A stretch of 64,000 bases of DNA from a bacterium (GCA_020440645.1 JAGRNR010000014.1:1294-65293); one strand, 5' to 3'. Shown: positions 10,225 through 57,903, numbered from the stretch's first letter. Numbers and translations: made by a program. Notes: generated from the sequence alone by a model not told the origin.

Positions 10225-10352
10225 GTCGCACCTCTGTCAGTGGTCTCCCCACTCAATACCCACATTTACGATAATTGTTTCGGAATCGGAATAATTCATA
10301 TCCTTATTAGACTACTTTCCCTGTTCAGGATTTCATGTCCTGGAGGCACGCC

Positions 10353-11642
10353 ATGAGCAACACTGGTATTTCGAAGTCCAAGGTGGGACTGGCAACGCTG
10401 GCAACGGCGTCAATGCTGGTAGTCCTGCTCCTTACATCCTGCAACAAGGCTGACAACGCAGCCGGACATGCAGCCATCCCCGAGGTGAATGCCCCGGTCA
10501 GCACCGTTGAGGCCGGCATCGTGCCGGGTTCGATCGAGCTGACGGGCACGGTCACCGGCCGCAGCAGCATCCCGCTGTCCAGCAAGCTGATGAGCGAGAT
10601 CACGATGCTCACGGTGGAGGAAGGCGACCGCGTCAGCGCCGGTGAGGTGCTGGTACGCCTCGATGACAGCGACATCCGCGCGATGCGCAGCGAGGCAGCC
10701 GCCTACCGCGCCGAGGCCCAGGCGGTGCTCAGCGAGGTCGCGGCGGTGAAGCAGCAGGCGACTGCCACCGTCAGCCAGTCCGAGGCCGCGATCGCCCAGG
10801 CGGAGGTTGCGCTGGAGGATGCGGAACGCGACCTCGGGCGCTTCCAGGCCCTTTATGAGAAGTCCGTGGTTTCTCGCGCCGAGCTGGACAAGGTGCAGCT
10901 CGGGGCCGATGTTGCCAGGCAGAACCTCAACCAGGCCCGCGCCGCCAAGGAACAGGCGCTGGCCGCCGTGGCCCAGGCCGAGAGCCGCAACCCGCAGGTC
11001 GAGGCCCGCGAGCAGCAGGCCGGAGCGCGTGACCTGCAGGCTGCCTCGATGCAGGCCTATGCCACGCTGAGCGCTCCCTTCGACGGCATCGTCAAGGCCA
11101 AGTACTTCGAGCAGGGACAGCTCAGCGTGCCCGGCCAGCCGATCATCGTGGTCGAGCAGATTGCCAACATGCGTGTCAGCCTTGCCATCCCGGACCATGC
11201 CGCGATGGAGCTGGCAACCGGTGACACGCTGCAGGTGGCGATAGACTCCGCCAACGGGCGTGAGCTGCGCGGCGGGCATATCGCCGTGCTGGCCGCCAGT
11301 GCCGACCCGGCCAGCCGCAGCGTGCTGGCGGAGGTCGAGCTGGATGACAGCAACGGCCTGCTCAGCGGGCAGTTCGTCAGGGTGCTCGTGCCCTCCGGCG
11401 AGCGCAATGTGATCCTCGCGCCTGAGTCGGCGGTGCTGCAGGATGCCGAGCTGTACTACGTCTGGCGGGTGTCCGGCGGCGGGCTGCTGACGCGCGCGAC
11501 CGTCGAGCCCGGCCTGCGGATGGATGGCAAGGTCGAGATCCTGCGCGGCCTCAGTGCCGGCGACCGGATTGTCAGCGAGCCCCGGCCGGGGCTGTTCGCC
11601 GGTGCCCGCGTAAGCGGCATGGCCAGCCCGGAGGGCCACTGA
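10353..11642 (+). CDS. Efflux RND periplasmic adaptor subunit (HlyD/AcrA family) lipoprotein
   Basis: ORF 10335..11642. GGAGG RBS sits before ATG 10353. Lipobox LLLTSC, coiled-coil hairpin (AEAQAVLSE…AQAEVALEDAERDL), and beta-barrel/MPD motifs are present. Its stop is 1 nt before the permease start. Confidence 0.85.
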   Translation: MSNTGISKSKVGLATLATASMLVVLLLTSCNKADNAAGHAAIPEVNAPVSTVEAGIVPGSIELTGTVTGRSSIPLSSKLMSEITMLTVEEGDRVSAGEVLVRLDDSDIRAMRSEAAAYRAEAQAVLSEVAAVKQQATATVSQSEAAIAQAEVALEDAERDLGRFQALYEKSVVSRAELDKVQLGADVARQNLNQARAAKEQALAAVAQAESRNPQVEAREQQAGARDLQAASMQAYATLSAPFDGIVKAKYFEQGQLSVPGQPIIVVEQIANMRVSLAIPDHAAMELATGDTLQVAIDSANGRELRGGHIAVLAASADPASRSVLAEVELDDSNGLLSGQFVRVLVPSGERNVILAPESAVLQDAELYYVWRVSGGGLLTRATVEPGLRMDGKVEILRGLSAGDRIVSEPRPGLFAGARVSGMASPEGH

Positions 11643-11643
11643 A

Positions 11644-14600
11644 ATGGAAAACAGGGAGCAGGATGGAGCCGCTAAACTCCCGCAGCAGACGGACCCGCTG
11701 GAGCCCAGTGCCAACCCGAAGCTGAACATCGGCGGCCTGATCGCCCAGACATTCATTGACAACAAGACCACCTTCCTCGTGATGGTGGCCGCCTTCATCT
11801 TCGGCCTGTTCGCGCTGTTCGTCACCCCGCGTGAGGAGAACCCGCAGATCAGCGTGCCGGCCGTCAACGTGATCATCCCCTTCCCCGGCGCCTCGCCGCA
11901 GGAGATCGAGAACCTCGTCACCTCACCGATGGAACGGCGGATCTGGAACATCAAGGGCATCGAGCACGTGTACTCGATCAGCTACCCCGATTTCGCCGTT
12001 GTCACCGCGCAGTTCCTCGTCGGCGAGGAGCAGGAGGACAGCGTCTTCAAGGTCTACAACCAGGTCTATTCCAACCTGGACAGCCTGCCCGCCGGGACGC
12101 AGCAGCCGATCGTCAAGCCGGTTGACATCAATGACGTGCCGATCGTCGCGATCACCCTGTTCAGCGCCGAACACGATACACATGCGCTGCGTACGGCGGC
12201 GGAACACCTCGAGCAGGGCCTGCGCGAGGTGCCCGGCACCAGCTCCAGCGTGATCGTCGGCGGCGACGGCCGCCAGATCACCATCGAGATGGACCCTGTC
12301 CGGAGCGCGGCCTTCGGCATCGACCCGCAGATGGTTGCCAATGCATTGCAGGGTGCCAACGTGCGCCTGCCCAGCGACCGCCTGGAGACCGGCGGGCAGC
12401 GCCTGATGGTGCGCAGCGGCCAGTTCCTGCGCAATGCCGAGGATGTCGGCAGCACCGTGCTGACGACGCGCGGCAGCGGCATCCCGGTCTACCTGCGTGA
12501 CATCGCGAGTGTGACGGACGGCCCGGCTGAGATCTCCAACGTCAGCCGGCTGAGCTTCGGCGCCGGCACCCAGCACGTCAGCGCGGAGGGCCATGGCCTG
12601 CGCGGTGGCTTCAGCGGGCAGGAATTCGAGACCAGCGGCCGCAGCTTCAACGCAGTCACAGTTGCCGTTGCCAAGCAGAAGAGCACCAATGCCGTGAAGA
12701 TCTCCGAGGCCGTGATCGAGCGCATGGACGAGCTCGGTCCGCTGGTGCTGCCTGACCGGACAGGCTGGCTGATCACGCGTGATGACGGTGAGGGTGCCAA
12801 CCATGCCGTCAACGAACTGATCACGCACCTGACCTGGGCAATCGTGATCGTGCTTGGCCTGCTGCTGCTGGCGCTCGGCTGGCGCGATGCCGCGGTGGTC
12901 GCTCTGGCGATCCCGCTCACGTTGCTGGTCACGCTCGGCATCGGCTTCCTCGCCGGCCAGACCATCAACCGCATCACCCTGTTCGCCCTGATCCTCAGCC
13001 TCGGCCTGCTGGTTGACGACGCGATCGTCGTCGTGGAGAACATCCACCGCCACCTGAAGATGAAGGCCGCCTGCGAGGGCAAGCTGCGCACCTGCGTTCT
13101 CGCTGTCAACGAAATCAGCAGCCCGACGATCTACGCCACCTTCACCGTCGTGCTGTCAATGATCCCGATGGCCTTCGTGACAGGCATGATGGGGCCATAC
13201 ATGGCACCGATCCCGTTCAATGTGCCGGTGGCGATGATCGTCAGCCTGATCGTGGCCTTCAAGGTCACGCCCTACCTCGCGGTGCGCTGGCTGAAGGCCG
13301 ACCACCATGCAGCTGATAATGGCAAGGACGCGAATGGCAAGGACTCCGCGAAAGGCACATCCGGCTCAACTGATAAGCCCGCTCCGGCGATTGACCTGAC
13401 GCATGGCGCTGACCCGAAGCTGCTGGCCTTCTACCGCCGGATGCTCGGCCCGCTGATTGACAGCAAACCGCGCCGTGCGGTGCTGTTCAGTGTGCTGGTG
13501 ATTGCGCTGCTCATCAGCTTCACCTTCCCGGTGCTGCAGTGGGTCAAGTTCCGCATGCTGCCCAAGGCCAACAAGAACACCTTCCTCGTGACGGTGGACA
13601 TGCCCGCCGGCAGCAGCCTGAATGCCACCGACAGCCTGGTGCGCGACATCGAGGAACGCCTGCTTGCGCATCCCGAGGTCAGCTCCCTTGTGACCACCGT
13701 CGGCACCGGCAGCGTGATCGACTTCAACGGCCTGCTGCGCGGCACTTCCTTCCGCAATGATGCGGCCCAGGCTGACATCCGTGTCAACCTGACGCCGAAG
13801 GAGGAGCGCAGCATCGCCAGCGAGCGGATCGTGCTGGACATCCGCCCCGAGCTGGCCGCGCTGGCCAGCGAGAAGCAGGCGATCCTCAAGCTGGTGGAGG
13901 ACCCGCCCGGGCCACCGGTGCGCGCCACCGTACTGGCCGAAATCTACGGCCCCTACGGCGAGGGCCAGCGCAGTGCCGTTGCCAATGTGCGCGGGATGTT
14001 CGCCTCCACTGACAGCGTGGTTGACATTGACGACTCGGTCAGCACAGCGGCCCGGGAGCTGCGCATCGAGGTGGACCGTGAGCGCGCCGAGCGCAGCGGC
14101 CTGCGGGCCTCTGACGTCGCCACCGCGCTGTATGCCGCACTGGCCGGTTACGAGATCACCGCGCTGCATGACCCGGCCGGGATGGTGCAGACCCCGGTGG
14201 TGCTGCGATTCCCGCAGCAGTTCCGCAGCCAGCTGGCGGACCTCGACAGCGTGGTGCTGCCTTCGCCCGCCGGCAACATCCCGCTGTCATCCATCACGCG
14301 CATGCGTGAGACCGATGCGCTCAGGCCGATCCACCACAAGGACCTGCGCCAGGTGAGCTATGTCTATGGCGAGATGGCCGGACGTTCCAGCGTGTACGCG
14401 ATCTTCGACATGATGGCGAAGTTGAAGCAGGACCCGCTGCCGCCGGCCTATGAACTGGTCTGGGAGGGCGAGTGGGACCTGACTCTCAAGGTGTTCCGTG
14501 ACCTCGGAATGGCAATGGGAGTGGCGATCCTCCTGATCTACCTGCTGATGGTCGGCCGCTTCCACAGCTTCAGCGACCCGCTGGTGATCCTCGGCGCGGT

Positions 14601-14991
14601 GCCGCTGACGATGCTTGGCGTGCTGCCCGGCTTCGCCCTGCTTGGCAACTTCGACATCTACTTCTCGGCGACCGGCATGATCGGCGTGATCGCGCTGGCC
14701 GGCATCGTGGTACGCAACTCGATCATCCTGATTGAGTTCATCCAGGATGCGCTCAATGAAGGCGTGCCGCTGCGCGAGGCTGTGATCCTCGCCGGTGCGA
14801 TCCGCACCCGCCCGATCGTGCTGACCGCGCTGGCAGCGATCGCCGGCATGCTGGTGGTGGTGGCGGACCCGGTCTGGAGCGGCCTGAGCTGGGCGCTCTT
14901 GTTCGGCATCCTCGCCAGCACCACCCTGTCACTGCTGGTGATCCCGCTGCTGTACTACATCGCCAAGGAAAAAACCGGAGGTCAGGCGTGA
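11644..14991 (+). CDS. RND efflux permease (AcrB/HAE1-like, 12 TM), 1115 aa
   Basis: Typical RND N-terminus (LIAQTFIDNKTTFLVMVAAFIFGLFALFVTPREENPQISVPAVNVIIPFPGASPQEIE) and two TM bundles. Contains a Lys/Asp-rich insert near residue 560. No OMF gene is adjacent. Confidence 0.9.
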   Translation: MENREQDGAAKLPQQTDPLEPSANPKLNIGGLIAQTFIDNKTTFLVMVAAFIFGLFALFVTPREENPQISVPAVNVIIPFPGASPQEIENLVTSPMERRIWNIKGIEHVYSISYPDFAVVTAQFLVGEEQEDSVFKVYNQVYSNLDSLPAGTQQPIVKPVDINDVPIVAITLFSAEHDTHALRTAAEHLEQGLREVPGTSSSVIVGGDGRQITIEMDPVRSAAFGIDPQMVANALQGANVRLPSDRLETGGQRLMVRSGQFLRNAEDVGSTVLTTRGSGIPVYLRDIASVTDGPAEISNVSRLSFGAGTQHVSAEGHGLRGGFSGQEFETSGRSFNAVTVAVAKQKSTNAVKISEAVIERMDELGPLVLPDRTGWLITRDDGEGANHAVNELITHLTWAIVIVLGLLLLALGWRDAAVVALAIPLTLLVTLGIGFLAGQTINRITLFALILSLGLLVDDAIVVVENIHRHLKMKAACEGKLRTCVLAVNEISSPTIYATFTVVLSMIPMAFVTGMMGPYMAPIPFNVPVAMIVSLIVAFKVTPYLAVRWLKADHHAADNGKDANGKDSAKGTSGSTDKPAPAIDLTHGADPKLLAFYRRMLGPLIDSKPRRAVLFSVLVIALLISFTFPVLQWVKFRMLPKANKNTFLVTVDMPAGSSLNATDSLVRDIEERLLAHPEVSSLVTTVGTGSVIDFNGLLRGTSFRNDAAQADIRVNLTPKEERSIASERIVLDIRPELAALASEKQAILKLVEDPPGPPVRATVLAEIYGPYGEGQRSAVANVRGMFASTDSVVDIDDSVSTAARELRIEVDRERAERSGLRASDVATALYAALAGYEITALHDPAGMVQTPVVLRFPQQFRSQLADLDSVVLPSPAGNIPLSSITRMRETDALRPIHHKDLRQVSYVYGEMAGRSSVYAIFDMMAKLKQDPLPPAYELVWEGEWDLTLKVFRDLGMAMGVAILLIYLLMVGRFHSFSDPLVILGAVPLTMLGVLPGFALLGNFDIYFSATGMIGVIALAGIVVRNSIILIEFIQDALNEGVPLREAVILAGAIRTRPIVLTALAAIAGMLVVVADPVWSGLSWALLFGILASTTLSLLVIPLLYYIAKEKTGGQA

Positions 14992-16866: not shown

Positions 16867-16943
16867 TGGTGGGCGCTACAGGATTCGAACCTGTGACCTC
16901 ATCGGTGTGAACGATGCGCTCTAGCCAACTGAGCTAAGCGCCC
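16867..16943 (-). tRNA. tRNA-Val (anticodon CAC)
   Basis: The reverse complement folds as a canonical cloverleaf: GGGCGCT-TA-GCTC AGTTGGCTA GAGC-G-CATCG TTCACAC CGATG-AGGTC-ACAGG TTCGAAT CCTGT-AGCGCCC-A-CCA. Confidence 0.85.
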
Positions 16944-20519: not shown

Positions 20520-20814
20520 GTTTTCCTCGCTTCGCTGCCTGCCCCTGGGGGGCTTCAGGCCTTACGCGTCACTGCTGCCTAACTATACGCCGGGGGATGG
20601 GGGATGGTTTCAGATGAGGATAGAGGATCCCGGAACTAGGGGCTGGCAGAATGGCTTGAAGTGACGGAAGATATGACTGTTTGCCCCGTGCTGTAATGAC
20701 ACATTGATCGGCAAAGCACCACGTCCCCGGTAAGACAAGCTGCTATTCACTGCTTTTGCAACACGTAAAACCTGATTCCCGACGCCTCGCCTGCCACACC
20801 CCACAACCCAGCTC

Positions 20815-21411
20815 CTACATCCCCGACATGTGCCAGATCCAGCCCAGCATCAGCAAGCTGACCGCCGCGATCCAGCTACCCGCCACCCGCACACCGATTC
20901 TCATCCATTCGGCATGCAGGCTGATGACCAACGCCGGCAGCAGGGTTGCCAGCAGGAACACAAGCGTGGCCGCGCCCCAGATCGCCAGCCCGTCCATGCC
21001 GGCCATTGTCAGCGCTGCCCCGTTCAGGTAGCCATGGAAGGCCGCCAGCAGGCAGGCCAGCGCGAGCAGCACCGCATGCGGCGGGCGGCGGTCCAGCAGC
21101 ACCAGCATGGCGACGAGGCCGAAGCTCAGCGTTGTCAGCATCGGGCTGTCCGCACTGCCGCCGGACTGCATCCCTGCCATCCCGGCCAGCAGCCAGTAGG
21201 CCGGCAGCAGCAGCAGCAGGGGCCGCGCAGTTTCCCGTCCTGCCTGGCCAGACAGCAGGCCCAGCGTGACCACGAGCAGGATGTCCGCCGGCGTCTGCAG
21301 CATGTGAACCATCCCGTCGTAGTAGCTGCCAAAGCCCGTGCTCACCAGATGCGCCCAGGCTAAGCCGGGCATCAGGCAGAACAGCATGAACACTGGCAGC
21401 AGGCGCTTCAC
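20815..21411 (-). CDS. HupE/UreJ-like membrane protein (third in the cluster)
   Basis: ORF 20815..21528. A GTG start at 21409-21411 overlaps the TGA of the upstream gene (GTGA coupling). The signal runs through …LAWAH, and there are multi-TM segments with an FHGY motif resembling FHGxAHG. Confidence 0.6.
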   Translation of the reverse strand: MKRLLPVFMLFCLMPGLAWAHLVSTGFGSYYDGMVHMLQTPADILLVVTLGLLSGQAGRETARPLLLLLPAYWLLAGMAGMQSGGSADSPMLTTLSFGLVAMLVLLDRRPPHAVLLALACLLAAFHGYLNGAALTMAGMDGLAIWGAATLVFLLATLLPALVISLHAEWMRIGVRVAGSWIAAVSLLMLGWIWHMSGM

Positions 21412-22013
21412 CCGAGCACGGCCCCCTTCAGGAAGAACAGCCCGCCAAGCAGCACGCAGGCCCCGGCTGCGCGTACCAGCAGTTCGCCGCGCTTCACATC
21501 GTTGAGCATCCCGAGCGCAATGCCGCACATGTGCAGCAGCCCAGTGCTGATCACGAAGCCGATGCTGTACAGCATGCCGTTGCCACCTTCCGGCAGCTCA
21601 GTGCCGTGCGCATGTCCGTGGAACACAGCGAAGACGGCCACCAGCAGCAGCGCCACCCACAGAGGCGGACTGAACTTGCCGAGCACCATGATGCCGAGCA
21701 CCACCGCGCTCAGTGCGATGCCGATCTCGATGCCCGGGATCGGCACGCCGATCAGCCCGAGAAAGCCACCGAAAGCCATCACCAGCGGGAAGGCCACCGG
21801 CAGCAGCCAGATCGCGGGCTTCTTCAGTTGCGCGCCCCACAGGCCGACGGCCACCATCGCAAGGATGTGGTCCCAGCCGCTGACCGGATGGTGCATGCCG
21901 GCCATGAATCCGACAGCCCCGCCCTCTTCCACATGCGCATGTGCCAGAATTGGCAACATGAGCGTCGCCAGGCCGAGCCAGTATGCGACTGGTCTGTACT
22001 GCATTGTGATCAC
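21408..22013 (-). CDS. HupE/UreJ family protein (Ni/Co-related secondary transporter family)
   Basis: 201 aa. Signal ends …LAHAHVEEGG. Conserved GWDHILAMVAVGLW and VFHGHAHGTE are the hallmark HupE/UreJ motifs. ATGA overlap with the upstream gene. Confidence 0.8.
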   Translation of the reverse strand: MITMQYRPVAYWLGLATLMLPILAHAHVEEGGAVGFMAGMHHPVSGWDHILAMVAVGLWGAQLKKPAIWLLPVAFPLVMAFGGFLGLIGVPIPGIEIGIALSAVVLGIMVLGKFSPPLWVALLLVAVFAVFHGHAHGTELPEGGNGMLYSIGFVISTGLLHMCGIALGMLNDVKRGELLVRAAGACVLLGGLFFLKGAVLG

Positions 22014-23020
22014 CTCCCGGCAAACATCATATATGAGCGCTGGATGAACCAGTAAGCGCCAGCCACCCCGACGGTGTAACCCGGCAGGCGGTGGGTCCAG
22101 CGCGGCCAGTGGAATTCCAGCACCTTGAAGGCACGTGCCAGCGCCAGCGCCAGCAGGACGAACAGCAGCTGGCCGAGTTCGACTCCGATATTGAATCCCA
22201 GCAGCGCCAGTGGGATCTCCCCGCGCGGCATGCCGGTCAGGCTCAGGCCACTGGCAAAGCCGAAGCCGTGCAGCAGCCCAAAGGCGAAGGCCACCACCCA
22301 GGGGTAGCGGATTGTCAGGCTGCTCTCGCCGCGCCAGACACGTACGATCTCCGGCCCGAGGAACAGGATGCTCAACGCGATCGCGGCATTCAGCGGGGCG
22401 ACCGGCACGCTGGCCAGGCCGAGGCTGGCCAGTGCGAGCGTGATGCTGTGGGCCAGCGTGAAGGCGGTGATGGTCTTCAGCAGGATCGGACGGTGGCCGA
22501 CGATCAGCAGCAGCCCGAGCACGAACAACAGGTGGTCCACACCGAGCAGGATGTGCTGGAAGCCAAGCGCGATGTATTCCAGCATCGATTCCCAGGCGCT
22601 ACGCTCCCCGCGCAGCTCGATCTGCGGATTCGTCGAGCGCACCACAGAGCTGTACGTGCTGCCGTCTAGGCGCGTGACCCGCACGAACACCTCAGTGACC
22701 ATGCCCTCCAGCCCCGGGAAACTGACAACGCTGCCATCCAGCGTGCCCGGCTCAATCGTGACACTGCGGATCTCCAGCTCACCGTCACTGAGGCTGCGGC
22801 GCTGCACCGGCGTGCTCTCCAGCCAGTCCGCCGGCAGCTGCAGGCCGACCGGGAAACCCTCCGGGCCTGTCGGCGGCGGCACCTTCCAGCTCACACGGAA
22901 CTGCGTCTCATCCAGCTGGGTGATGTTCAGCACGCAGGGCTTGCTTTCATGCGCCAGCGCCGGTCGGGCCGGGATTGCCAGAGCCGCGAGCAGCAGGATT
23001 GCCAGCCAGGCCCGCCTCAC
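22010..23020 (-). CDS. HupE/UreJ_2-like membrane protein with a ~130-aa N-terminal periplasmic domain
   Basis: 336 aa. Signal …ALAHESKP, then a soluble domain, then 6 TM with GVDHLLFVLGLLLIVGH and FTLAHSITLA motifs. ATGA overlap with the upstream PPIase gene. Confidence 0.55.
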   Translation of the reverse strand: MRRAWLAILLLAALAIPARPALAHESKPCVLNITQLDETQFRVSWKVPPPTGPEGFPVGLQLPADWLESTPVQRRSLSDGELEIRSVTIEPGTLDGSVVSFPGLEGMVTEVFVRVTRLDGSTYSSVVRSTNPQIELRGERSAWESMLEYIALGFQHILLGVDHLLFVLGLLLIVGHRPILLKTITAFTLAHSITLALASLGLASVPVAPLNAAIALSILFLGPEIVRVWRGESSLTIRYPWVVAFAFGLLHGFGFASGLSLTGMPRGEIPLALLGFNIGVELGQLLFVLLALALARAFKVLEFHWPRWTHRLPGYTVGVAGAYWFIQRSYMMFAGR

Positions 23021-23955
23021 TCGGCCGCCCCTTCATCCGGCACATCCTCGCTTGCCAGCTGCGCCATGTCGAAACTGTCAACGCTGATCTCGTACAGCTG
23101 CTTCACGCCCTCGAGCGCGGCATCGAGCTTCTCTCGCTGCTGTGCCTCGATCCAGTCCCGCTCGACATCCTCGCGGATCTCCCCCAGCTCCAGCGGCCGG
23201 CCCGCGCGCCGCTCCTCGATGAACACGAGGTGCACGCCGTAGCTGCTTTCCACCGGTCCGCTCCAGGCGCCGACGGGGAAGTCCCTGATTGCATCCGCGA
23301 ACAGCGGGTCGAACTGCCAGCCGATTTCACTGAGCGCCACCAGTGGCAGGCGCGGCGGCAGGCTGCCCGCATCGCTCAGCTCCTGCACCAGCCCAAGTTC
23401 CTCAGTGCCCGTCAGCTGCTGCTTCAGCAGTTCGGCATCCAGCAGCGGCTCCGCGCGCTGCAACGGGTCGAGATAGATCTGCATTAGGCTCAGCGAATCC
23501 TCCGTGCGGTAGCGCTCGGGGTGCTCCTCGAGGAACTGCTGCAGCTCTTCTTCCGTCGGCGTGGGCGGCTCGCTGCCATCATCCAGCAGCAGCTCGTACT
23601 TGCTGCGCAGGTGGTCACGGATCAACTGGTCGTCACGGTCCAGTCCCATGCCGCGCGCCTCGCGCACGCAGACTTCCGTGCGGATGTAGTCGTCAATCAG
23701 CTCCTGCAGCTCAGCCTGCGTCGGCTCACGGTCGAAGTCGCGCACGAAACCGTGGTACATCACCGCGATGCGCGGGCGGTCGACAGTGATCTCAAACTCG
23801 CTCTCATCCGCAGGCTGCTGGCGCAGGTTGCTCAGCAGGAACAGCAGGCCGCCGACCAGGATGAAGTGCACGATCGGCTCGCGCCATATCGAATGCGGCC
23901 GCGCTTCCGCACCGCCGCCATCGCCTGCCTGGTTAAGTTTCTGGTTATCTGCCAT
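23017..23955 (-). CDS. Membrane-anchored parvulin-type peptidyl-prolyl isomerase (PpiC domain)
   Basis: 312 aa. N-terminal TM is IVHFILVGGLLFLLSNL. The C-terminal PpiC signature GPVESSYGVHLVFIEERR fits S-x-(F/Y)G-x-H(L/I)(V/I). First gene of a 4-gene coupled operon. Confidence 0.65.
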   Translation of the reverse strand: MADNQKLNQAGDGGGAEARPHSIWREPIVHFILVGGLLFLLSNLRQQPADESEFEITVDRPRIAVMYHGFVRDFDREPTQAELQELIDDYIRTEVCVREARGMGLDRDDQLIRDHLRSKYELLLDDGSEPPTPTEEELQQFLEEHPERYRTEDSLSLMQIYLDPLQRAEPLLDAELLKQQLTGTEELGLVQELSDAGSLPPRLPLVALSEIGWQFDPLFADAIRDFPVGAWSGPVESSYGVHLVFIEERRAGRPLELGEIREDVERDWIEAQQREKLDAALEGVKQLYEISVDSFDMAQLASEDVPDEGAAE

Positions 23956-24103
23956 GTCTCCTGCCGGCCCTGACCGGATTGCAGATTATGGCGCATGACC
24001 GGAGGTCCGGCGCAAGCCGGGCGGAGTGTTGGTCTTAGACCAACAAGGCCCTGTAGCTCTAAGAGCTACACTCCGCTACCCCCTACAACCGAGTTCCTAT
24101 GTC

Positions 24104-24565
24104 CTACTTCATTTCCTCAATCATTGAGCGCATCTTCTCCGCGCTGACCCCGCTCGAGCGCCTCACCTCAATCACGCCGTCCGGCTTGCCATCCCCGTCC
24201 ATGTCCTGCCCGGCTGCCATGTCCTCCCCGAAGCCCAGCAGGATGTAGTCCTTCACCTCATAGCCGTCATGCACCGCGATGTAGCAGACGTTGCCAGCGG
24301 CCAGCTCGCCGGCGGTGAAGGCCACCGGATGCATCTCAGTGCGGTCGTATGGATTGATGAGCGCCATGTTCTGCCCGTCCTTCATAAGGTCGGCATTCAG
24401 CGTCTCCGGGTACAGCCCGCCGTTCTGGCGCGCCCAGTCCAGCAGGTTCTGCTCAATGGTTGCAATGTGCGCCTTGAGCTCCATGTCCGCCAGGCTGTCC
24501 GCCGCCGGCTGGTTACAGCCGGCCAGCAGGGCCAGCATTGCCATTGCAATCCAGAAAAGCTTCAT
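24104..24565 (-). CDS. Hypothetical lipoprotein (153 aa)
   Basis: Signal plus lipobox MKLFWIAMAMLALLAGC. Asp/Gly-rich C-terminus (DMDGDGKPDG). No family recognised. Confidence 0.55.
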   Translation of the reverse strand: MKLFWIAMAMLALLAGCNQPAADSLADMELKAHIATIEQNLLDWARQNGGLYPETLNADLMKDGQNMALINPYDRTEMHPVAFTAGELAAGNVCYIAVHDGYEVKDYILLGFGEDMAAGQDMDGDGKPDGVIEVRRSSGVSAEKMRSMIEEMK

Positions 24566-25574: not shown

Positions 25575-25651
<77 letters not shown>

Positions 25652-25656
25652 GGATA

Positions 25657-25730
25657 TGGAGGCGGCGGGCGGAATCGAACCGTCGATAAAGGATTTGCAG
25701 TCCTCTGCCTTACCACTTGGCTACGCCGCC
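25657..25730 (-). tRNA. tRNA-Cys (anticodon GCA)
   Basis: The reverse complement is GGCGGCG-TA-GCC AAGTGGTAA GGC-A-GAGGA CTGCAAA TCCTT-TATC-GACGG TTCGATT CCGCC-CGCCGCC-U-CCA. It has the 3-bp D-stem and U73 typical of tRNA-Cys. There is one A·C mismatch in the T-stem. Confidence 0.75.
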
Positions 25731-33927: not shown

Positions 33928-34039
33928 TGTCTTGTCCTGCCGTTCGCAGCGGCAGGAAGATTATATAAGGTGCGGTGGAGCTACCCGCTTCAGCGGTAGG
34001 AGGCCAGGCTGTTAGCCTGGCGGCGGGATGGGGGATGCC

Positions 34040-40859: not shown

Positions 40860-42632
40860 TTACGGTGCATACACGGCCCAGACCAGCTTGGTCTGGGTCC
40901 GGACTTCCTCGCCATTGCCGGCTGACAGGCTGAACAGCTGCGCAAGGGCCGGTTGGCCATCAAGCAGCATGAAGCTGGTCAGGCCCGCCGGATAATCCGG
41001 CAGCACGCCATCGATCTGCCAGTCCGCAGGGTCATTGCCAGGCATTGCGCTGCTCCAGTGGCTCAGCACCATTAGCTGGCCATCGAGCGCAGTGGATGCC
41101 TGCGGACTGCCATGCAGGAAGTGCAGCTCAGCCCCGCTGCCCGCCAGGCCCAGCAGCGGGTCCTGCCCCAGCCCGAGCATGTCGTAACTGCTGTATTTCC
41201 AGGACTCGAACAGCTGCGGATCGCCATCGAGGAATTCAGCCGTCCAGAAGCGCAGGCTGCCATCCTGCGCCGGATGCCCGTCCACGCAAGCCAGCAGCGG
41301 ATGCCCGTTCAGTTCAGCGGTGTACATCGCCGAGTCCCGCCCTTCGCCGAGCGTCAGGTGGACCCAGTCGTCCGAGGTACTCGGGAATGACGAGATGCTG
41401 CTGGCAACGCGGAACTCCCGCAGGTCGTTGCCGAGATCAACGCAGTAGCCGAAGGCCGGGCCGCCATTGATGCTGATCGGCGGCGTCGTCCCGGATGTGC
41501 CGGGGATGTCCGGCAGGTCCAGGTAGACGTCGCACACTGCCCAGGACAGGTCATCGGGACTTGATTTGAATGCATACAGCAGGGTGTGGAAGTTGTCACT
41601 GGGAGAGCTGCTGACCTGCATTGTGATTGCCGGCCCGCTGTCCAGCCGGCCCAGCCGGGGGTTGACAAGCCTGGGTGCGCCCATGAAAGCCTCGTTGCTG
41701 AAGGTTTCGTGCGGGTCACCGGCATAGTGCCAGACGAGTGTGGGCACTGCTGGGTTGCCAAAGGGCACGACATTGATGATACCGAAGCCACCGTCGAAGT
41801 CCGCCATGTCCAGGCCCTCCGCACCGAAGAACTGCCCCTCAAGCGAAAGCAGCTCCCAGTCCGGCAGGGCGGCGCCGTTGGCAGTGTTGCTGATTGCCAG
41901 CCGCACGCTTTCAGCCCCGGCGGCATCCCGTGTGGCAAACACGATCGCCGGCCGGCCGCCTATGATGCGCGCCTGCAGCGCCAGTGCGCCGTCAAAGGCG
42001 CTGCCGACATCACTTGCCGATTCCAGCTCCACGAAGCGCCAGCCGCTGGCGGGCCGGGTTGCCAGCTCGAAGTGGTCAAGCACCGGCTGTCCGCCACCCG
42101 TCGCCACGATGAAGGCCAGCAGCACATTCCCTGCGGGAGTTGTATAGCTTGCGCTGTCCGGCCATTCCAGCGCATCCTGCGGATTATCCGCAGCGCGCCA
42201 TTCCCAGCGATTGTCAGCCGGAAGGCCGATGCCAATAAAGCAGGACCCGGCCGCCGGTGTTATGCCCCAGTCCATCACCAGCTCAAGCGGTCCGCTGTCA
42301 GCCAGCGGCACGCGGTACACGGCCCACGCGAAATGCTGCGGAGCTGCTTCGCCGGAAGCTGGCGGCAGGAATCGGATGCCCTCGCCGTCCGTTGCCAGGT
42401 TGCCCTGTGGCAGCTCCATGCCCAGCCGCGCCCCCGCGATGAAGCCCAGGCTGTCGGATGCCACGCGCTCGATCAGCACGCCGGGGGCCGGGAGGTCGGC
42501 CGGTGTACCCGGAGCGCTGGGAAGATCCGTTGGCAGCGATGCTGACTGCGCGCTCACGCGGCTGCAGGAACAGTTCACTGCACAGGCCAGCCAGCCTGCC
42601 AGCAGCAGGCACGAAAGGGAAAACGGACGCAT
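40860..42632 (-). CDS. Hypothetical secreted protein (~590 aa) located between the two dockerin-propeller paralogs
   Basis: ORF 40860..42692. GAGGA RBS sits before ATG at 42632 (MRPFSLSCLLLAGWLACAVNC signal). No motif recognised. Pro/Gly/Ala-rich, predicted beta-rich. Confidence 0.5.
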   Translation of the reverse strand: MRPFSLSCLLLAGWLACAVNCSCSRVSAQSASLPTDLPSAPGTPADLPAPGVLIERVASDSLGFIAGARLGMELPQGNLATDGEGIRFLPPASGEAAPQHFAWAVYRVPLADSGPLELVMDWGITPAAGSCFIGIGLPADNRWEWRAADNPQDALEWPDSASYTTPAGNVLLAFIVATGGGQPVLDHFELATRPASGWRFVELESASDVGSAFDGALALQARIIGGRPAIVFATRDAAGAESVRLAISNTANGAALPDWELLSLEGQFFGAEGLDMADFDGGFGIINVVPFGNPAVPTLVWHYAGDPHETFSNEAFMGAPRLVNPRLGRLDSGPAITMQVSSSPSDNFHTLLYAFKSSPDDLSWAVCDVYLDLPDIPGTSGTTPPISINGGPAFGYCVDLGNDLREFRVASSISSFPSTSDDWVHLTLGEGRDSAMYTAELNGHPLLACVDGHPAQDGSLRFWTAEFLDGDPQLFESWKYSSYDMLGLGQDPLLGLAGSGAELHFLHGSPQASTALDGQLMVLSHWSSAMPGNDPADWQIDGVLPDYPAGLTSFMLLDGQPALAQLFSLSAGNGEEVRTQTKLVWAVYAP

Positions 42633-42743
42633 GTTCGAATCCTCAATCGCAGAGTAAGAAATACTACGTCCTGCAACTCGCAAAGCAGGCATTGTGAAGA
42701 TTGATCATGCGAAATGGCTTTCCGATCACGGACTGCCTGCCCA

Positions 42744-47666: not shown

Positions 47667-47835
47667 TCCAGTCAGGCTTCCCGCTGAAATCAGCCCCGGC
47701 TGGCCTCCCGGCGGGCGATCTGAGCCCCAGTTTTCCGTTTTACGTATTCCGCAGCATCGGTTGGATTTAAGTTAAATGCCGGGTACAACCAACGGTTGCA
47801 GCTGCCTCCAGGCCCTGCGATCGAGGAGCCAAATA

Positions 47836-50800
47836 ATGCGTTTCAATCGGACCAAGATCTACCTTCTGATGTTGTTGCTGATGCCGGCTGTGCTGGCCTC
47901 CTGTGGCGCAGGTGGCGGTAGCGCGGTTTCATCCCTTGATGCAGCTTCCCAGCCGTCGGTTCCACTGCAGGGTAATGCCCCGCTGGCAGATGGCCTGCCA
48001 GCCCTGGACCAGCTGCCCGAGCCATCGCGCAGTGCGATGCTCAGCGGCCCGGGATACTTCCCGGTGCCGATCCTCGAGCAGGGCGTGATGCTGCAGCGCA
48101 GTGGTTCGGTCGTCTCCGGCCCGCAGGGCATCGAGCTGGATGGCAGCGCAGGTGAGGCCTGGGTGCTGTTCGGGGTCTATGGCTTCGACGGTGACAGCCA
48201 GCCGAACGCCGTAATGGCGGAGGCCACCGATGTGCAGGGCAGTTTCCATATCGGCGTCACGCACTACGCCAGCGGACGCTGGGAGTGGAGCGCGCCCTTC
48301 ACCGGCGATGAGGAGCATGAGTACGAGCACGTGGCCCAGTACACCGTGGCCGACCAGTATGTCAGCGAGCGTGGCTTCCACTACATCGCCGTGCTGGCGC
48401 CGGAGGGCTCGAGCCTGCTGCTCAGCGGCCTGCAGCTCGGGGTGGACGGCGGTGACAACGCACCCGTCGCGCCGGACTACTTCGAGATCAGCAATGGTGA
48501 CGCCGGCTTCCACTTCTGGTGGTACCCTAGCCCGGACCATGACGACCCGGACTTCGCCGGCTACACCATGCAGCGCGCCCTGTGGCCCGGCACCGACTTC
48601 CAGGACCTCGGCCCGCTCTCACACGAGACCTTCTACCATGACGCTGCAGCCGACCCGGCCCTGCTCTACCGCTACCGTGTACGCGTGGCGGATGTAAGTG
48701 GCAACTCCAGCTGGGGTTATTCCAACACCCCGGTCAGCGTCAGTGGCGACAACTACCCGGTGCCGGCGCTGGAGATGCCGGCCGGGCCGCTCTACGGCGG
48801 GCAGATGGTGACATTCGACCTCAGCGGCAGCTATGACCCCGACGGCGAACCGCTCACGGAATACACGGTCCAGTTTGACAACACGAACGGCATGGGCGGC
48901 GTCGGCCCGCTCACCAGCACCGACCCGCAGATCAGCGTGCTGCTGCAGCCCGGCTGCTACGTGGTGCAGGCCGCGGCCAAGTCCACCGTCTACTGCCAGC
49001 CGATCGTTGACACGCTGAAGATCTACCCGGCCTGGCAGCCTGAGCCGCAGCTGGTGGCCGAGCCCGGCAGCGGGCAGTGGCGCATGCAGTCCAGCCGCAG
49101 CATCTACTGGCCACAGGGCGACGCAATCGTCACATTCTTCAATGACTACCTCGGCCCCGGCCTCGGCGCGCTCGTGCAGCATGCCGACGGCAGCCGGGAG
49201 GTCCTGCAGCTGCCCTACTACCTGTACGACATCGACTGGATCTCCGAGCCGGTGGTCTGGCAGGGCCAGCCCTATGTCGGCGTCGTGTCTGACAACGTGA
49301 TGCTACTGGCGACCATCGGGGCGGACGGCCTGCAGTGGATTGAAGGCGGCCTCGGCTACACCGGCTTTGTGAACATCGATCTCGTGGTGGACGGCGAGGA
49401 CCAGCTGCGGGTCTGCACCCTGAATGAATACAACCCCGGGGACTTCGAGGTGCTCGCGATCAATGCCGGCAACCCGCTCGACATCTACACCCTCGAGTTC
49501 ATGTCCAATTCCGACGGTCCGTTTGACGTGGAGTGGAACCCGGAATACGGCGGCTTCGAGCTGATTTACACCACGGTCGGCAGCATCCACTGGAACCGCA
49601 CCGATGAGGAGGGTGGCCTGGTTGTCGACGACTTCGTCGGCGCGGGCATCTTCGATTCACTGGACATGGAACTCCATGCGGACGGCAGCCCCGGCGTGAT
49701 GGGCCGCTCCGGTGGGTCCTTCGTCTACTTCTCCTTTGACGAGGGCACCGCCAGCTGGTCAGCACCCGAAGTGATCGAGCCGATTGGCCTGAACGGCAAG
49801 TCCGGCGACCTGCTGTTCGATGGCAACGACATGGCAGCCTTCTTCGGCCTGGCGGTGGGCCAGTCATCGCTATACCGCCGCAACGGCGGCAGCTGGGACC
49901 CGCAGACCGTCAACTGGGCGCTGCTTTCCGGCCAGCACTGCGCCATCGCCCAGTGGCCCGACGGCCGCGTGAACATCATCGACGGCACGGTGGGCGGCGC
50001 GATCTTCATCTCCGACTTCAATGAGGATGGCAGCCACCCCGCCCCGATTGAGGTTCCCTCCGTTTCCTGGGACGGCATTGACTTGAATGCCGTCGCCGGG
50101 GCTGACGGCATCCACGCCGTCTGGCGTGGTGACAACGGTGCGATCCATTACATCGCCGACGACGACGGCACCAATTGGAACGCCTCCACCGGCTTCGTCA
50201 GCAGCGATGCACTTGAGCTGATGGCGGACGAGAACGGCAAGGTGTTCGTCGGCAACACCCACGGTGCGACCGCCGACCTGTTCAGCTGGTTCGGCGGCGC
50301 CTGGCTGATCGAGGGCAGCTCCAACCGCTGGGGCAGCAGCCTGCCTTACCTCGCCGCCCAGCGTGATGCCCCCGGCGGACAGTTCATCGTGCAGGATGAC
50401 CTGCCAGTGCCGCCAGCGCTCAGGCACATGCATGACGACGGCGGCGGCTTCCTCGTGTTTGACAGCTACGATTTCGACACGATCCGGATTGACGAGGGGG
50501 TGTCCCTCTTCACGGGCGCCGGGCTGATCAGCTTCGTGCGCGGCGATGAGATCCTCGGTTCCAGTGGGCTGGTCGGCTTCATCTCCGCTGACGACCACAG
50601 CTATGCCCACCAGATACACGACTACCTTTACACCAGCAGCGTTGACCTGACGCGCGGCCGCCGGATGGATGCCTGCAACTACCTGACAGGCCCGTCAAAC
50701 TCGCACAGCGCATTCTGGGTCAGCGGACTCGAGGGCGGCGCTCCCGGCGTGACGCGCTTCCAGGGCAAGGCCTACAACGGCAAGTACAACGTCGACAGCA

Positions 50801-51087
50801 ACACTGCCCTGGCGGACCCGGTCGGCATCGGGGCCGGGCAGATGCAGCACACGCTGTCCGCGGCCCAGGCCTGGGGCCTGACTGCCGTGGCGATCTCCGA
50901 CCAGTTCGGCGGCGAGCAGGGCTGGCTGGAATGGAGCAACTTCGGTGAGTTCGAAAGCCTCGCACTGCCACCGATCGACATGGAATACACGATGATGCAC
51001 GAACTGGTTGTCGGTGCGGATGGCCGCTGGCACATCCTCTACCGTGACAAGCGCGACGGGGCGATCTATGAGATCAGCACCACATGA
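47836..51087 (+). CDS. Giant secreted lipoprotein, tandem paralog 1 (N-terminal domain, FN3-like, PKD-like, then BNR/Asp-box beta-propeller-like C-terminal region)
   Basis: ORF 47776..51087. GAGGAG RBS sits before ATG 47836 (MRFNRTKIYLLMLLLMPAVLASC lipobox). FN3-like motif is YRYRVRVADVSGNSS. PKD motif is FDLSGSYDPDGEPLTEY. Asp-box motifs are RRNGGSWD and ADDDGTNW. The conserved C-terminus is WHILYRDKRDGAIYEISTT. Confidence 0.75.
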   Translation: MRFNRTKIYLLMLLLMPAVLASCGAGGGSAVSSLDAASQPSVPLQGNAPLADGLPALDQLPEPSRSAMLSGPGYFPVPILEQGVMLQRSGSVVSGPQGIELDGSAGEAWVLFGVYGFDGDSQPNAVMAEATDVQGSFHIGVTHYASGRWEWSAPFTGDEEHEYEHVAQYTVADQYVSERGFHYIAVLAPEGSSLLLSGLQLGVDGGDNAPVAPDYFEISNGDAGFHFWWYPSPDHDDPDFAGYTMQRALWPGTDFQDLGPLSHETFYHDAAADPALLYRYRVRVADVSGNSSWGYSNTPVSVSGDNYPVPALEMPAGPLYGGQMVTFDLSGSYDPDGEPLTEYTVQFDNTNGMGGVGPLTSTDPQISVLLQPGCYVVQAAAKSTVYCQPIVDTLKIYPAWQPEPQLVAEPGSGQWRMQSSRSIYWPQGDAIVTFFNDYLGPGLGALVQHADGSREVLQLPYYLYDIDWISEPVVWQGQPYVGVVSDNVMLLATIGADGLQWIEGGLGYTGFVNIDLVVDGEDQLRVCTLNEYNPGDFEVLAINAGNPLDIYTLEFMSNSDGPFDVEWNPEYGGFELIYTTVGSIHWNRTDEEGGLVVDDFVGAGIFDSLDMELHADGSPGVMGRSGGSFVYFSFDEGTASWSAPEVIEPIGLNGKSGDLLFDGNDMAAFFGLAVGQSSLYRRNGGSWDPQTVNWALLSGQHCAIAQWPDGRVNIIDGTVGGAIFISDFNEDGSHPAPIEVPSVSWDGIDLNAVAGADGIHAVWRGDNGAIHYIADDDGTNWNASTGFVSSDALELMADENGKVFVGNTHGATADLFSWFGGAWLIEGSSNRWGSSLPYLAAQRDAPGGQFIVQDDLPVPPALRHMHDDGGGFLVFDSYDFDTIRIDEGVSLFTGAGLISFVRGDEILGSSGLVGFISADDHSYAHQIHDYLYTSSVDLTRGRRMDACNYLTGPSNSHSAFWVSGLEGGAPGVTRFQGKAYNGKYNVDSNTALADPVGIGAGQMQHTLSAAQAWGLTAVAISDQFGGEQGWLEWSNFGEFESLALPPIDMEYTMMHELVVGADGRWHILYRDKRDGAIYEISTT

Positions 51088-54100: not shown

Positions 54101-54439
54101 ACCCGGATTGAGGGCCTCAACTTCGTTGGCGACATGTCCATTGAGCATGTCGAGGGCTTCGACAGCCTGCTGGACACCCAGACCTTCTCCGGCGCCCTGA
54201 CCACCGTCAGCGCGGCCCAGGCCAGGAGCAACACCGCCGTGGCCGTGCTGGACCAGTTCTTCGGTGACTGGCACCGCATGGAGTGGAGCAACTTCGGTGA
54301 CTTCGAGGAGATCCCCTCGCCGGGCATCGACTGGTCCATGACCAGCATGCACGAGCTGGTGGTCGGCGAGGACGGCCAGTGGCACCTGCTGTACCGCGAC
54401 ATGCGCGACGGCTACATCTACGTGATCAGCACTACATAG
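51178..54439 (+). CDS. Giant secreted lipoprotein, tandem paralog 2 (same architecture)
   Basis: ORF 51008..54439. AGGAG sits 8 nt before TTG 51178 (…NTYRYRWALGALALFTCMAMLGSC lipobox). YRYRVRYEDVSGNAG, FDMSGSFDPDGDAITEY, RRNGGSWD and SADGKNW are present. The C-terminus is WHLLYRDMRDGYIYVISTT. Confidence 0.7.
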
Positions 54440-54545
54440 GTAGCAGAAAGCAGAGAGCAGGGAGCAGACTCGACGTGCGAACAGCGTGGTCTGCTTTCTG
54501 CTTTCTGCTCTCTGCTTTCTGCTCTCTGCCCCCTGCTCCCAGCAA
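54440..54545. repeat. Family A hairpin (AGCAGAAAGCAGAGAGCAGGGAGCAGACTCG … GTCTGCTTTCTGCTTTCTGCTCTCTGC) directly after the paralog-2 stop
   Basis: Arms of tandem GCAGA/TCTGC pentamer-hexamers, complementary in several registers. Begins 1 nt after TAG 54437-54439. Confidence 0.7.
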
Positions 54546-54633
54546 CCTGCAACCTGATCCCTGTATACTCAACACAGGGAACTGCAGTAGATGCAGCGGC
54601 TGGCAGGAGGCCATGCCCCCGTCGGAGTTCTGC

Positions 54634-57600: not shown

Positions 57601-57903
57601 TTCAGCCTGCAGGAGCAGGCGCAGTTCCGCTTCGCCTTCGGCAACCGAGACTGGCAACGCCTGCGCACAGTCAGTGCCGTCCAGGCCTGGGGCCTGACCT
57701 GCGTCGGGCTGATCGACCAGGCCTTCGCAGATGGAGCGAAGCTGGAGTGGGACGACTTCGGCGACTGGGAGCAGCTGTCGCTGCCCCCGGTAGACTTCGC
57801 CCGCAGCAACATGCATGAGCTGGTGGTTGGCAACGACGGCCGCTGGCACATGCTGTTCCACGACCTGCAGGACGGCGGGATCTACGTGATCAGCACTACG
57901 TAG
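54634..57903 (+). CDS. Giant secreted lipoprotein, tandem paralog 3 (same architecture)
   Basis: ORF 54379..57903. The likely start is ATG 54634 (MRLVGSGTAWSVAVLIVLAACCLLPSCSG lipobox), because the upstream 85 codons overlap the hairpin repeat 54440-54545. YRYRIRSFDVAGNSS, IDLSRSFDRDNDSFTDY, HRTGGSWQ and PEDGSGW are present. The C-terminus is WHMLFHDLQDGGIYVISTT. Confidence 0.7.
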   Translation: MRLVGSGTAWSVAVLIVLAACCLLPSCSGRQPDMSAPAQQVDLTPGPEPAAPVADGLPQLASLPDAQHSASYLGQGWFPVPILEQGVLIAASPGVSSAAQGVVINAAGGQSAWAVFGIYGFDGDSFPAALACELTTLSGDYALAASRYLDGRWEVAGPFTDDAQFEYAYAGGGADPRNLLSGRGCHYVAVIASPGSSLELSGLQLAVDGGQDGPAAVSFPQGIRSSLGVQLVWQASADGRNPDFEGYIVERADWPGTTFAAVSEPLHGLDWLDTDLQEDRHYRYRIRSFDVAGNSSSGPYSTVLGSFDNLPPVCVMDIPTGPLYGAQQVTIDLSRSFDRDNDSFTDYTLLFGNDPFDIGVGPLSNTDGAFSVLLQPGCYHVIGVVTAGANIGTCVSELKIYPQWENEAQLIASAPPVAPVLGSPSGTYLPAINGVATFGLEPVLPGLGLLLQPADSPARLLRIVPPRFGIDGISEATQWNGLAICAAVDGSNAYIAYTDGENFDWLEVGRGFVKGSRLDLVVPASSPPYLCFIEENFMPSSRLLAYASIGSSTPLELVPVFEGDYPFDVEWNAAQQGFDILYGQPGATRLRRCDASGNMLLERTIAFTTPQKLELEIDPATGNPVILWRSSGGTAIYTQYDNDSDSFLPGEPVDPLLLASLGEQLALAGGLPVVFMGSPGQPAGLYHRTGGSWQRMAADWSPLSGTDGSLAARPDGTLRVLDSDDAMTSWLVDIMPGATQSVVDSLPPTGRQGMDLNAVAGSDGLHAIWCADGESRHYRNPEDGSGWQPVNLLDACQSQDLMADQSGSVLLSTRVDNASFLLKWNGADWDAIWFTLSNLDQSNPWMCMQSNSPAPQWLYLEDDLPDDRLHYVTDYGTGLQESTSSIYPDQVMEGAGVYSGNFMVSIVALGNGSYRDGRIGVLNKPHNSVDVLLNASANIPDEASGLQGRQLDACMGKHSSGNVQTVFYSSVSAFQQDATRLCGFSYNGDFSLQEQAQFRFAFGNRDWQRLRTVSAVQAWGLTCVGLIDQAFADGAKLEWDDFGDWEQLSLPPVDFARSNMHELVVGNDGRWHMLFHDLQDGGIYVISTT

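Follow-up and report, generated by a model that had tools for sequence, protein, structure and literature searches.

The subject of this analysis is a group of four genes, termed g1 to g4, at positions 20815-23955 of a 64,000-nt stretch of bacterial DNA (GCA_020440645.1, JAGRNR010000014.1:1294-65293), which as a whole is referred to as the window. We read this operon as a periplasm-facing module for transition-metal capture and transport that is made up of four co-translated inner-membrane proteins, and assign a probability of about one half to this reading. A metal-handling role had already been suggested by the original prediction for this locus and is still the best reading. Together with its relatives in other genomes, the operon defines a widespread four-to-five-gene module consisting of a chaperone (g1), a permease with a domain that starts with a histidine as its putative first mature residue (His1; g2), a pair of a complete and a degenerate HupE (g3 and g4) and a secreted DUF3604 protein. 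The g1-g4 module itself is new in that literature searches for DUF3604, for HupE together with isomerase and for HupE together with Zur yielded no description of it, whereas the anglerase-type HupE/UreJ-2 architecture of g2 is known.

All four open reading frames (ORFs) are located on the minus strand and are tightly packed (Table 1). Pfam assigns g1 to the rotamases and all three permeases to HupE/UreJ families, with nothing specific added by NCBIfam for any of the four proteins. The earlier reading of the locus had been made to depend on two points, namely the family membership of the first and third permeases (g2 and g4) and the recurrence of the gene set elsewhere; both the HupE/UreJ assignments and the conservation were found. 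Read from the sequence, g2 starts at a GTG over the stop codon of g1 and g4 at a GTG over the stop codon of g3, each with a GTGA overlap. For g3, a start at the ATG at 22004, which leaves a 5-nt spacer after the g2 stop, appears more likely than the alternative GTGA overlap, because this ATG is preceded at a distance of 8 nt by GGGAGG (22013-22018), the likely ribosome-binding site of g3, and because the same ATG is used in the related locus L007. The overlaps ATGA, ATGA and GTGA that had been proposed earlier are hence correct for the third junction only, the first being GTGA and the second more likely a short spacer. Translational coupling of the four genes as such is supported, in line with these overlapping or near-abutting junctions, which are also kept in distant loci. 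A consensus scan of the operon revealed neither an internal sigma-70-like promoter nor an intrinsic terminator.

The Pfam match of g2 is restricted to residues 149-297, and the approximately 145 N-terminal residues belong to no Pfam family. In the family alignment A23, H24 and E25 are conserved, with H24 being invariant in 40 relatives, and cleavage of the signal peptide before His24 would generate a mature protein starting with His1. The mature N-terminus would then read HESKP, the consensus being HESQP in the family and HES-R-P in more distant members. An AlphaFold2 model built from a 40-sequence alignment (mean predicted local distance difference test score (pLDDT) 82.8) comprises a signal helix, a beta-sandwich formed by residues 29-135 (block pLDDT 80-92) and about six membrane helices. 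Both this sandwich ahead of the membrane part and the PF13795 match agree with the previous description of g2 as a HupE_UreJ_2-like protein with an extra periplasmic domain. When the extra domain was compared with the PDB using Foldseek, the top match was ZrgA of Vibrio cholerae (8ezw/8f1b; E 2.7e-4, TM-score 0.58 on the target), and the matches ranked below it were generic Ig-like folds or noise. The membrane domain keeps the motif HX5DH (H156...D162-H163) and has LLHGFGFA as second motif; H191, E224, N277, E281 and Q284 are further invariant polar residues of the membrane region. A search of the g2 family profile against the sequences of the PDB found no solved structure, and searches of g2 against Pfam at E values up to 1 returned only two HupE models, both for the membrane domain, and no match to DUF2796.

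A comparable architecture, overlooked as a precedent for g2 by the original prediction, was recently described for the anglerase (Ang-1/Ang-2)-HupE/UreJ-2 permeases, for which a crystal structure is available (RbAng-1a, 9GCE; Nat Commun 2025, PMC12537917). Through its His1, the Ang-1 domain binds Cu with a Kd of 74 nM and Ni with one of 220 nM, and ZrgA was reported as the nearest structural neighbor of the crystallized Ang-1 domain (PMC12537917). The extra domain of g2 may accordingly be named an 'anglerase-like' metal-capture domain, with metal binding as its presumed function. A hidden Markov model search with this domain retrieved 1,072 cluster representatives (approximately 1,000 clusters at 50% identity). 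Four of five carrier sequences that were read continue into a HupE_UreJ_2 membrane domain, the fifth being scrambled by frameshifts after the domain. As a side observation, eight stretches of the 2072-aa protein P0282 match positions 67-100 of the periplasmic-domain profile, which could be repeats of a related beta-sandwich unit or spurious matches.

The two remaining permeases differ strongly in their motif content. The PF04955 match of g3 spans practically the whole profile (positions 2-178 of 179), and the protein contains a signal peptide ending in AHA/H, followed by HX5DH in the form HPVSGWDH and by FHGHAHGTE, with these motifs being at least 95% conserved among 65 family members. In work on Rhizobium HupE, the motifs HX5DH and FHGX[AV]HGXE were reportedly essential. 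Judged by these features, and as had been proposed, g3 is a canonical, complete HupE with both nickel-permease motifs. In g4, whose signal peptide ends in AWA/H, only H36...D43 and FHGYLNG are left of the motifs: the first has the form H36-x6-D43-I and lacks the second histidine, and in the second (FHGYLNGAA) the second histidine is replaced by asparagine and the glutamate by alanine. The PF04955 score of g4 nevertheless exceeds the cutoff, in agreement with the suggestion of a third, divergent HupE-like protein, and an hhalign comparison of the g3 and g4 families gave a probability of 98.5% (E 2e-15) at a BLASTP identity of 26.6%. By this measure g4 is clearly a true HupE paralogue, motif-degenerate yet conserved. 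According to the family alignments, A-x-A and a conserved histidine close the signal-peptide-like N-termini of g2 (H24), g3 (H24) and g4 (H21). An invariant histidine at the predicted mature N-terminus is therewith a feature of all three permeases, which the original prediction had missed. Sequence searches of the PDB found no solved structure among HupE relatives.

For g1, hydropathy indicates a transmembrane helix at about residues 23-45, which is preceded by a conserved REP..HF motif. The AlphaFold2 model (pLDDT 87.4) contains an N-terminal helix (27-45) and, after it, helical parts that surround a single parvulin domain. Together with the PF13145 match, this is in accordance with the membrane-anchored parvulin assumed previously. 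Over its full length, the model matched PEB4/Cj1289, SurA, PrsA, LIC12922 and YacD in Foldseek searches (E 1e-5 to 8.5e-9), with a probability of 1.00 for PEB4/Cj1289, SurA, PrsA and LIC12922 and with TM-scores of 0.55-0.72 for the parvulin domains. A GP...S...G-H motif is invariant in the family, including the GP motif, S237 and the second histidine, H242. The modeled structure identifies g1 as a membrane-anchored periplasmic chaperone of the SurA/PrsA/PEB4 type with one Rotamase_2 domain. Relatives of g1 share 30-40% identity, those of g2 about 60%.

A search with the g2 protein yielded at least 7,999 proteins at E <= 1e-5. Nearly all of the best 120 matches were full-length, with identities of 59-65%, and their named sources span several phyla. 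In both Desulfosediminicola flagellatus and a metagenome-assembled genome of the Krumholzibacteria, a Rotamase_2 gene, a 335-aa HupE_UreJ_2 gene and two HupE genes of about 200 aa follow each other in the same order, separated by 4-nt overlaps, 1-nt overlaps or 2-nt gaps, with one or two DUF3604 (PF12228) genes close by. A scan of the GTDB representatives, one genome per species, gave at least 440 confirmed loci. The locus counts reported here refer to the best 80 of these, whose six-frame ORFs were annotated by jackhmmer with the four window proteins and DUF3604 as seeds, and in the counts of g1-g2 adjacency, of g3 and g4 and of DUF3604 only loci with sufficient flanking DNA were considered. 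g1 adjoins g2 in 71 of 77 loci. Both g3 and g4 are present in 58 of 73, just one of the two in 3, and about 12 loci have g1-g2 without g3-g4. The best 80 loci are distributed over more than 10 phyla, which include Acidobacteriota, Desulfobacterota, Gemmatimonadota, Verrucomicrobiota, Planctomycetota, Alpha-, Beta- and Gammaproteobacteria as well as Bacteroidota/Ignavibacteria, Hydrogenedentota, Krumholzibacteria and Myxococcota; cultured carriers are Ensifer sp. B1-9 and D. flagellatus. The gene order is consequently kept in other genomes, and the set of three permeases and a foldase, which had been regarded as unusual, is instead widespread, with at least 440 species-level matches. A start codon allowing a 4-nt overlap is available for g1/g2 in 34 of 66, for g2/g3 in 40 of 61 and for g3/g4 in 37 of 55 species loci, corresponding to 52-67% of junctions across the three gene pairs. 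Since such starts recur at all three junctions across species loci, the tight packing is more than a product of chance. All-against-all clustering of the neighboring genes revealed no other strongly recurrent neighbor; apart from spurious overlapping ORFs and generic response regulators, it gave only a secreted 275-aa protein in 8 loci and RND pumps in about 10, both described below.

A comparison with the two closest relatives indicated that the operon is a mosaic. Relative to the closest complete genome (CP060262.1, L008), the window is 96% identical upstream of the operon and 99% just downstream of it, about 89-97% over g1 and the periplasmic domain of g2, and 72-75% over the g2 membrane domain; g3 and g4 are absent from L008 altogether. 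The comparison with L007 gave the opposite picture: g1 is 66-87% identical, and the g2 membrane domain and most of g3 and g4 reach 86-95%, except for one 100-nt stretch at the start of g3 that drops to about 70-80%. Within the compared region (20611-22680), the breakpoint lies at about 22580-22680, which is the domain boundary of g2, and the g2 membrane domain has therefore traveled with g3-g4. As a single event, this would fit a co-adapted unit of the g2 membrane domain, g3 and g4. These data also bear on the question whether the three permeases might be independent and merely co-transcribed, each with a different metal or affinity and with no complex being formed, and with g1 serving as general foldase. 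Such independence is suggested by their mutual identities of only 24-28% and their differing motif sets, by the loci that have g1-g2 alone, among them the closest complete genome, and by the low multimer likelihood for Ang-HupE/UreJ-2 proteins (PMC12537917). It appears unlikely, however, given that g4, although poor in motifs, is conserved and hardly ever occurs in the absence of g3, that overlapping junctions are kept across phyla and that the g2 membrane domain was exchanged along with g3-g4. A hetero-oligomer of HupE-type proteins is backed only indirectly, by the pairwise gain and loss, the degenerate but conserved g4 and the one recombination pattern.

The usual partner of the module is a secreted DUF3604 protein and not a hydrogenase or urease. 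A DUF3604 gene is found within 10 kb of the module in 46 of 58 loci, usually directly upstream of g1, and DUF3604-g1-g2 is the most constant trio, with five alphaproteobacterial loci having no g3/g4. Seventeen DUF3604 members align over about 640 residues and have a signal-peptide-like start and an invariant FGD-H-x-H-T..S.D motif (FGDTHLHT..S.DA), next to further invariant His/Asp positions (DH, HRN, HNGN, D.H). As this resembles the signature of PHP phosphoesterases, a PHP-like fold might be assumed. Pfam and NCBIfam gave no support beyond DUF3604 itself, no match was found among PDB sequences, and within the literature searched only one paper mentions DUF3604. In eight loci (L005, 2043-2870; L006, L011, L031, L037, L058, L062 and L066) a secreted protein of about 275 aa without Pfam family adjoins DUF3604. 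Separately from this, in alphaproteobacterial loci (L064, L069, L070, L074 and L077) the region about 150-300 nt ahead of DUF3604 (e.g., L069 6400-6700) holds a conserved promoter-like block, TTGAAG-16 nt-GATAAT, and a structured leader whose length varies; neither an Rfam match nor a known operator consensus was found for it.

The association with DUF3604 might also imply that the genes do not serve uptake but constitute a maturation line for a periplasmic metallo-enzyme, which loads metal into the Sec-exported DUF3604 protein and folds it. The His1 domain of g2 would then act as metallochaperone, the HupE-type channels would serve to release the metal on the outer side of the membrane or to buffer it there, and g1 would hold the unfolded client. 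The frequency and position of DUF3604, its signal-peptide-like start, its invariant motif and further invariant His/Asp residues, the constancy of the trio and the assignment of g1 to a SurA/PrsA-type class acting on exported proteins all fit such a function. On the other hand, the window contains no DUF3604 gene in its 64 kb, 12 of the 58 loci have none within 10 kb, and the resemblance of DUF3604 to the PHP fold is one at motif level only. Moreover, characterized HupE proteins import metal. On balance, a maturation line of this kind is possible but rather improbable. The same holds, to an even greater degree, for a further reading, in which a periplasmic metallo-enzyme would have its own assembly line, consisting of g1-g4 and, if present, DUF3604, with a hetero-oligomeric channel of the g2 membrane domain, g3 and g4. 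This channel would carry a specific transition metal through the inner membrane, the His1 'brace' of g2 would pass it on, and the tethered g1 would present the unfolded, Sec-exported DUF3604 protein for metal insertion.

In the capture and transport reading that we prefer, His1 of g2 would bind the metal as a 'mono-histidine brace', capture the ion and hand it over to the attached HX5DH-containing HupE/UreJ-2 channel. The g3/g4 pair, proposed to work together since both genes are gained and lost together, may provide a partner channel or be part of one alongside the g2 membrane domain. At the membrane, g1 might see to the folding of the periplasmic parts or of a secreted client, and DUF3604, where present, probably uses or supplies the metal. 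This metal would most likely be Ni/Co or Cu; the direction of transport, the physical complex and the client of g1 are likewise what we infer from the evidence as a whole.

Several observations weigh against this reading. The g2 model is unreliable just around His24, as residues 19-25 have pLDDT values below 50. Although 9GCE was part of the library, the g2 family profile missed it at E values up to 10; it was also not among the 50 best Foldseek matches of g2, and hhalign aligned only the first 24 residues of the N-terminal domain to Ang-1, with a probability of 10.8%. At the level of these comparisons, the N-terminal domain of g2 is not detectably homologous to Ang-1. Concerning the formation of complexes, AlphaFold3 runs gave a low likelihood of homo-multimers for Ang-HupE/UreJ-2 proteins (PMC12537917). 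In g1, the first conserved parvulin histidine is a glutamine in the window protein as well as in most family members, with the catalytic-site positions having been placed by eye alignment to Pin1. Peptidyl-prolyl isomerase activity of g1 is consequently uncertain, and because of this glutamine a chaperone role appears to be the safer reading. Upstream of the module, neither the window nor 22 proteobacterial and other loci yielded a metal-responsive operator or riboswitch. Finally, the periplasmic location of the partners, DUF3604 and g1, fits periplasmic metal delivery as well as uptake.

The rest of the window was also checked for genes that could be linked to the operon. Among its larger ORFs, no gene for a hydrogenase, a urease, B12/cobalt functions or any other obvious Ni/Co enzyme was found, consistent with what had been noted before for hydrogenase and urease. 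A resistance-nodulation-division (RND) pump at 10335-14991 had been taken for a czc-type efflux operon. This label was rejected, as multidrug models score above the CusA/CzcA model, with all scores below every cutoff, and the pump is better regarded as a generic RND system. The pump lies about 6 kb from the operon, and RND genes also adjoin the module in several unrelated genomes (L015, L037, L052 and L082; Table 1), which might point to metal tolerance on the efflux side or to a non-metal role, e.g., as membrane scaffold for an envelope enzyme. HupE-type proteins have been described as diffusion facilitators, so that their direction is not fixed. Yet, the link to RND systems is weak, since an RND permease ORF is present in only about 10 loci of about 20 kb (a number that includes duplicate loci of the same genome and the window), only four of them being close, and the pump of the window is generic. 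Furthermore, metal coordination is suggested by the His1 domains and by the invariant His, Asp and Glu residues of the membrane helices, and the sole biochemistry on relatives is metal binding (PMC12537917), which makes an efflux-side or non-metal function very unlikely. Other features of the window are four ORFs of 610-1174 aa without a Pfam match at E <= 1e-5 (40860-42692, 47776-51087, 54379-57903 and 60078-62708) and tRNA genes at 16867-16943 and 25575-25730 (Val-CAC, Val-GAC and Cys-GCA), of which Val-GAC and Cys-GCA are located about 1.6 kb upstream of the operon.

With regard to regulation, what the intergenic regions of the window, L007 and L008 have in common is limited to the 47 nt directly ahead of the g1 start codon (CATGCGCCATAATCTG...). 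A promoter function of this segment may be assumed from its elements (Table 1); a consensus promoter scan over it found nothing. Further upstream, a composite palindrome (fold z-score -2.9) accounts for the hairpins that had been interpreted as a multi-hairpin 5' untranslated region. The hairpins do exist, but a riboswitch or structured leader was rejected: Rfam gave no match on 23800-24300 at E values up to 10, L007 and L008 carry different palindromes at the corresponding site, and similar hairpins recur elsewhere in the window. Because of this variability between relatives and the recurrence in other intergenic regions, they are considered to resemble repetitive extragenic palindromic (REP) elements, and the palindrome is outside the functional module. 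L007 and L008 have another palindrome, CTACCGCTAAAGCGGGTAG, ahead of g1, and this one recurs in the window at 33981 and 36466. Short intergenic palindromes with 7-8 bp stems and loops such as CTAAAG or GTTAG are present at 15140, 25938, 33981, 34003, 36251, 36466 and 36532; they are probably REP-like elements of the window genome, with some types being common to L007 and L008. The suggested Ni/Co riboswitch or NikR operator was not found upstream of g1, and simple consensus scans of 22 related upstream regions revealed no credible Zur, Fur, PhoB, NikR or CueR site. In view of the missing operator or riboswitch match, the metal is therefore not readable from the regulation. In ten loci of Acidobacteriaceae (L013, L015, L016, L017, L021, L024, L026, L027, L054 and L061), a conserved AT-rich spacer of about 110 nt separates g1 and g2 (e.g., L015 9803-9917). 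It contains a GTAAG..CTTAC hairpin, a TAGAAT box and ATTGAAAATAAAC, and may represent an internal promoter or operator; Rfam gave noise only.

Table 1. Coordinates of the operon, its parts and associated elements (window positions unless another locus is named).
Feature	Position	Strand	Description
g1	23017-23955	(-)	312 aa; Rotamase_2 PF13145, E 5.7e-13, 50.2 bits (cutoff 27)
g2	22010-23020	(-)	336 aa; HupE_UreJ_2 PF13795, E 1.4e-41, 142.2 bits (cutoff 24.5)
g2 signal peptide	22952-23020	(-)	residues 1-23, ending ...ALA/HE; hydrophobic 4-22
g2 periplasmic beta-sandwich	22601-22951	(-)	about 120 aa from invariant His24; AlphaFold2 strands 29-135
g2 membrane domain	22010-22600	(-)	HupE_UreJ_2, about 6 transmembrane helices; PF13795
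g3	21408-22004	(-)	198 aa; HupE_UreJ PF04955, E 1.2e-54, 184.9 bits (cutoff 23)
g4	20815-21411	(-)	198 aa; PF04955, E 4.1e-8, 33.4 bits (cutoff 23)
Leader/promoter-proximal segment	23956-24002	(-)	CATGCGCCATAATCTG..., -10-like CATAAT, small CCGG...CCGG hairpin, GGAG before ATG
Composite REP-like palindrome	24021-24076	(-)	outer stem GCGGAGTGT/ACACTCCGC around two 8-bp hairpins
RND efflux genes beside module	L015 12775-17159		adaptor and permease
RND efflux genes beside module	L037 11774-16646		adaptor and permease
RND efflux genes beside module	L052 50-4570		adaptor and permease
RND efflux genes beside module	L082 15159-20927		adaptor and permease

HupE/UreJ proteins are usually treated as single accessory Ni/Co permeases, and the module suggests that HupE-type channels can act as hetero-oligomers with a dedicated foldase. 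It further provides a testable context for two large families of 'unknown' proteins, DUF3604 and the g2-type His1 domain, and adds a third domain type and many further phyla to the range of the recently proposed 'anglerase' mechanism of metal fishing. If the assembly-line idea were true, the genes would encode a compartment-specific metallation machine, which is not yet described for the bacterial periplasm. The presence of the module in cultured bacteria makes genetics feasible.

Among known systems, the anglerases are the first to be compared with g2. Both have a signal peptide, an invariant (predicted) mature His1, a periplasmic beta-sandwich and a C-terminal PF13795 domain, the g2 membrane domain being 45% identical to Ang-1-HupE/UreJ-2 proteins. 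The N-termini are also alike (AHE.(K/R/Q)P in g2, AHEVRP in Ang-1), and ZrgA is the closest solved structure for both. However, the g2 domain comprises only about 120 aa compared to about 170 in Ang-1, thus being about 50 residues shorter and having no helical insert, and members of the g2 type are spread over many phyla, in contrast to the reported occurrence of Ang-1 in Pseudomonadota and of Ang-2 in Actinomycetota (PMC12537917). As the anglerase architecture is shared, sequence homology to Ang-1 was not detected and the carriers are broadly distributed, we regard the domain of g2 as a third type of anglerase-like domain, one with a broad distribution. The neighborhoods differ as well: the anglerase paper lists DUF4198, IndA-like and PfkB genes as neighbors and counts Rotamase_2 only three times, and neither DUF3604 nor PF04955 was encountered in its accessible supplementary text (PMC12537917). 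From these differing neighbor counts, it seems that the g1-g4 module is not covered by the accessible parts of that work.

In comparison with the HupE/UreJ proteins of hydrogenase and urease clusters, such as HupE of Rhizobium leguminosarum, g3 likewise belongs to PF04955 and has the HX5DH and FHGHAHGTE motifs. The module differs from these in its context, which lacks hydrogenase, urease and B12 genes, and in having three paralogues (one of them degenerate) instead of one, which are tied to a chaperone and mostly to DUF3604. ZrgA (DUF2796), which belongs to the Zur-regulated ABC importer ZrgABCDE, is similar to g2 in that it is the best fold match of the periplasmic domain and in that its main site is formed by a flexible N-terminal His segment and an acidic residue on the sandwich. 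In contrast to g2, with which it shares 12% identity, ZrgA works for an ABC transporter as a separate protein and is not fused to a HupE channel. Similar to SurA, PrsA, PEB4 and PpiD, g1 has N- and C-terminal helical chaperone parts that flank one parvulin domain, and like PpiD it is tethered through an N-terminal transmembrane helix. It differs from all of these in belonging to a dedicated, operon-specific family with a conserved REP..HF..G sequence at the anchor, most members of which have the glutamine in place of the first conserved parvulin histidine.

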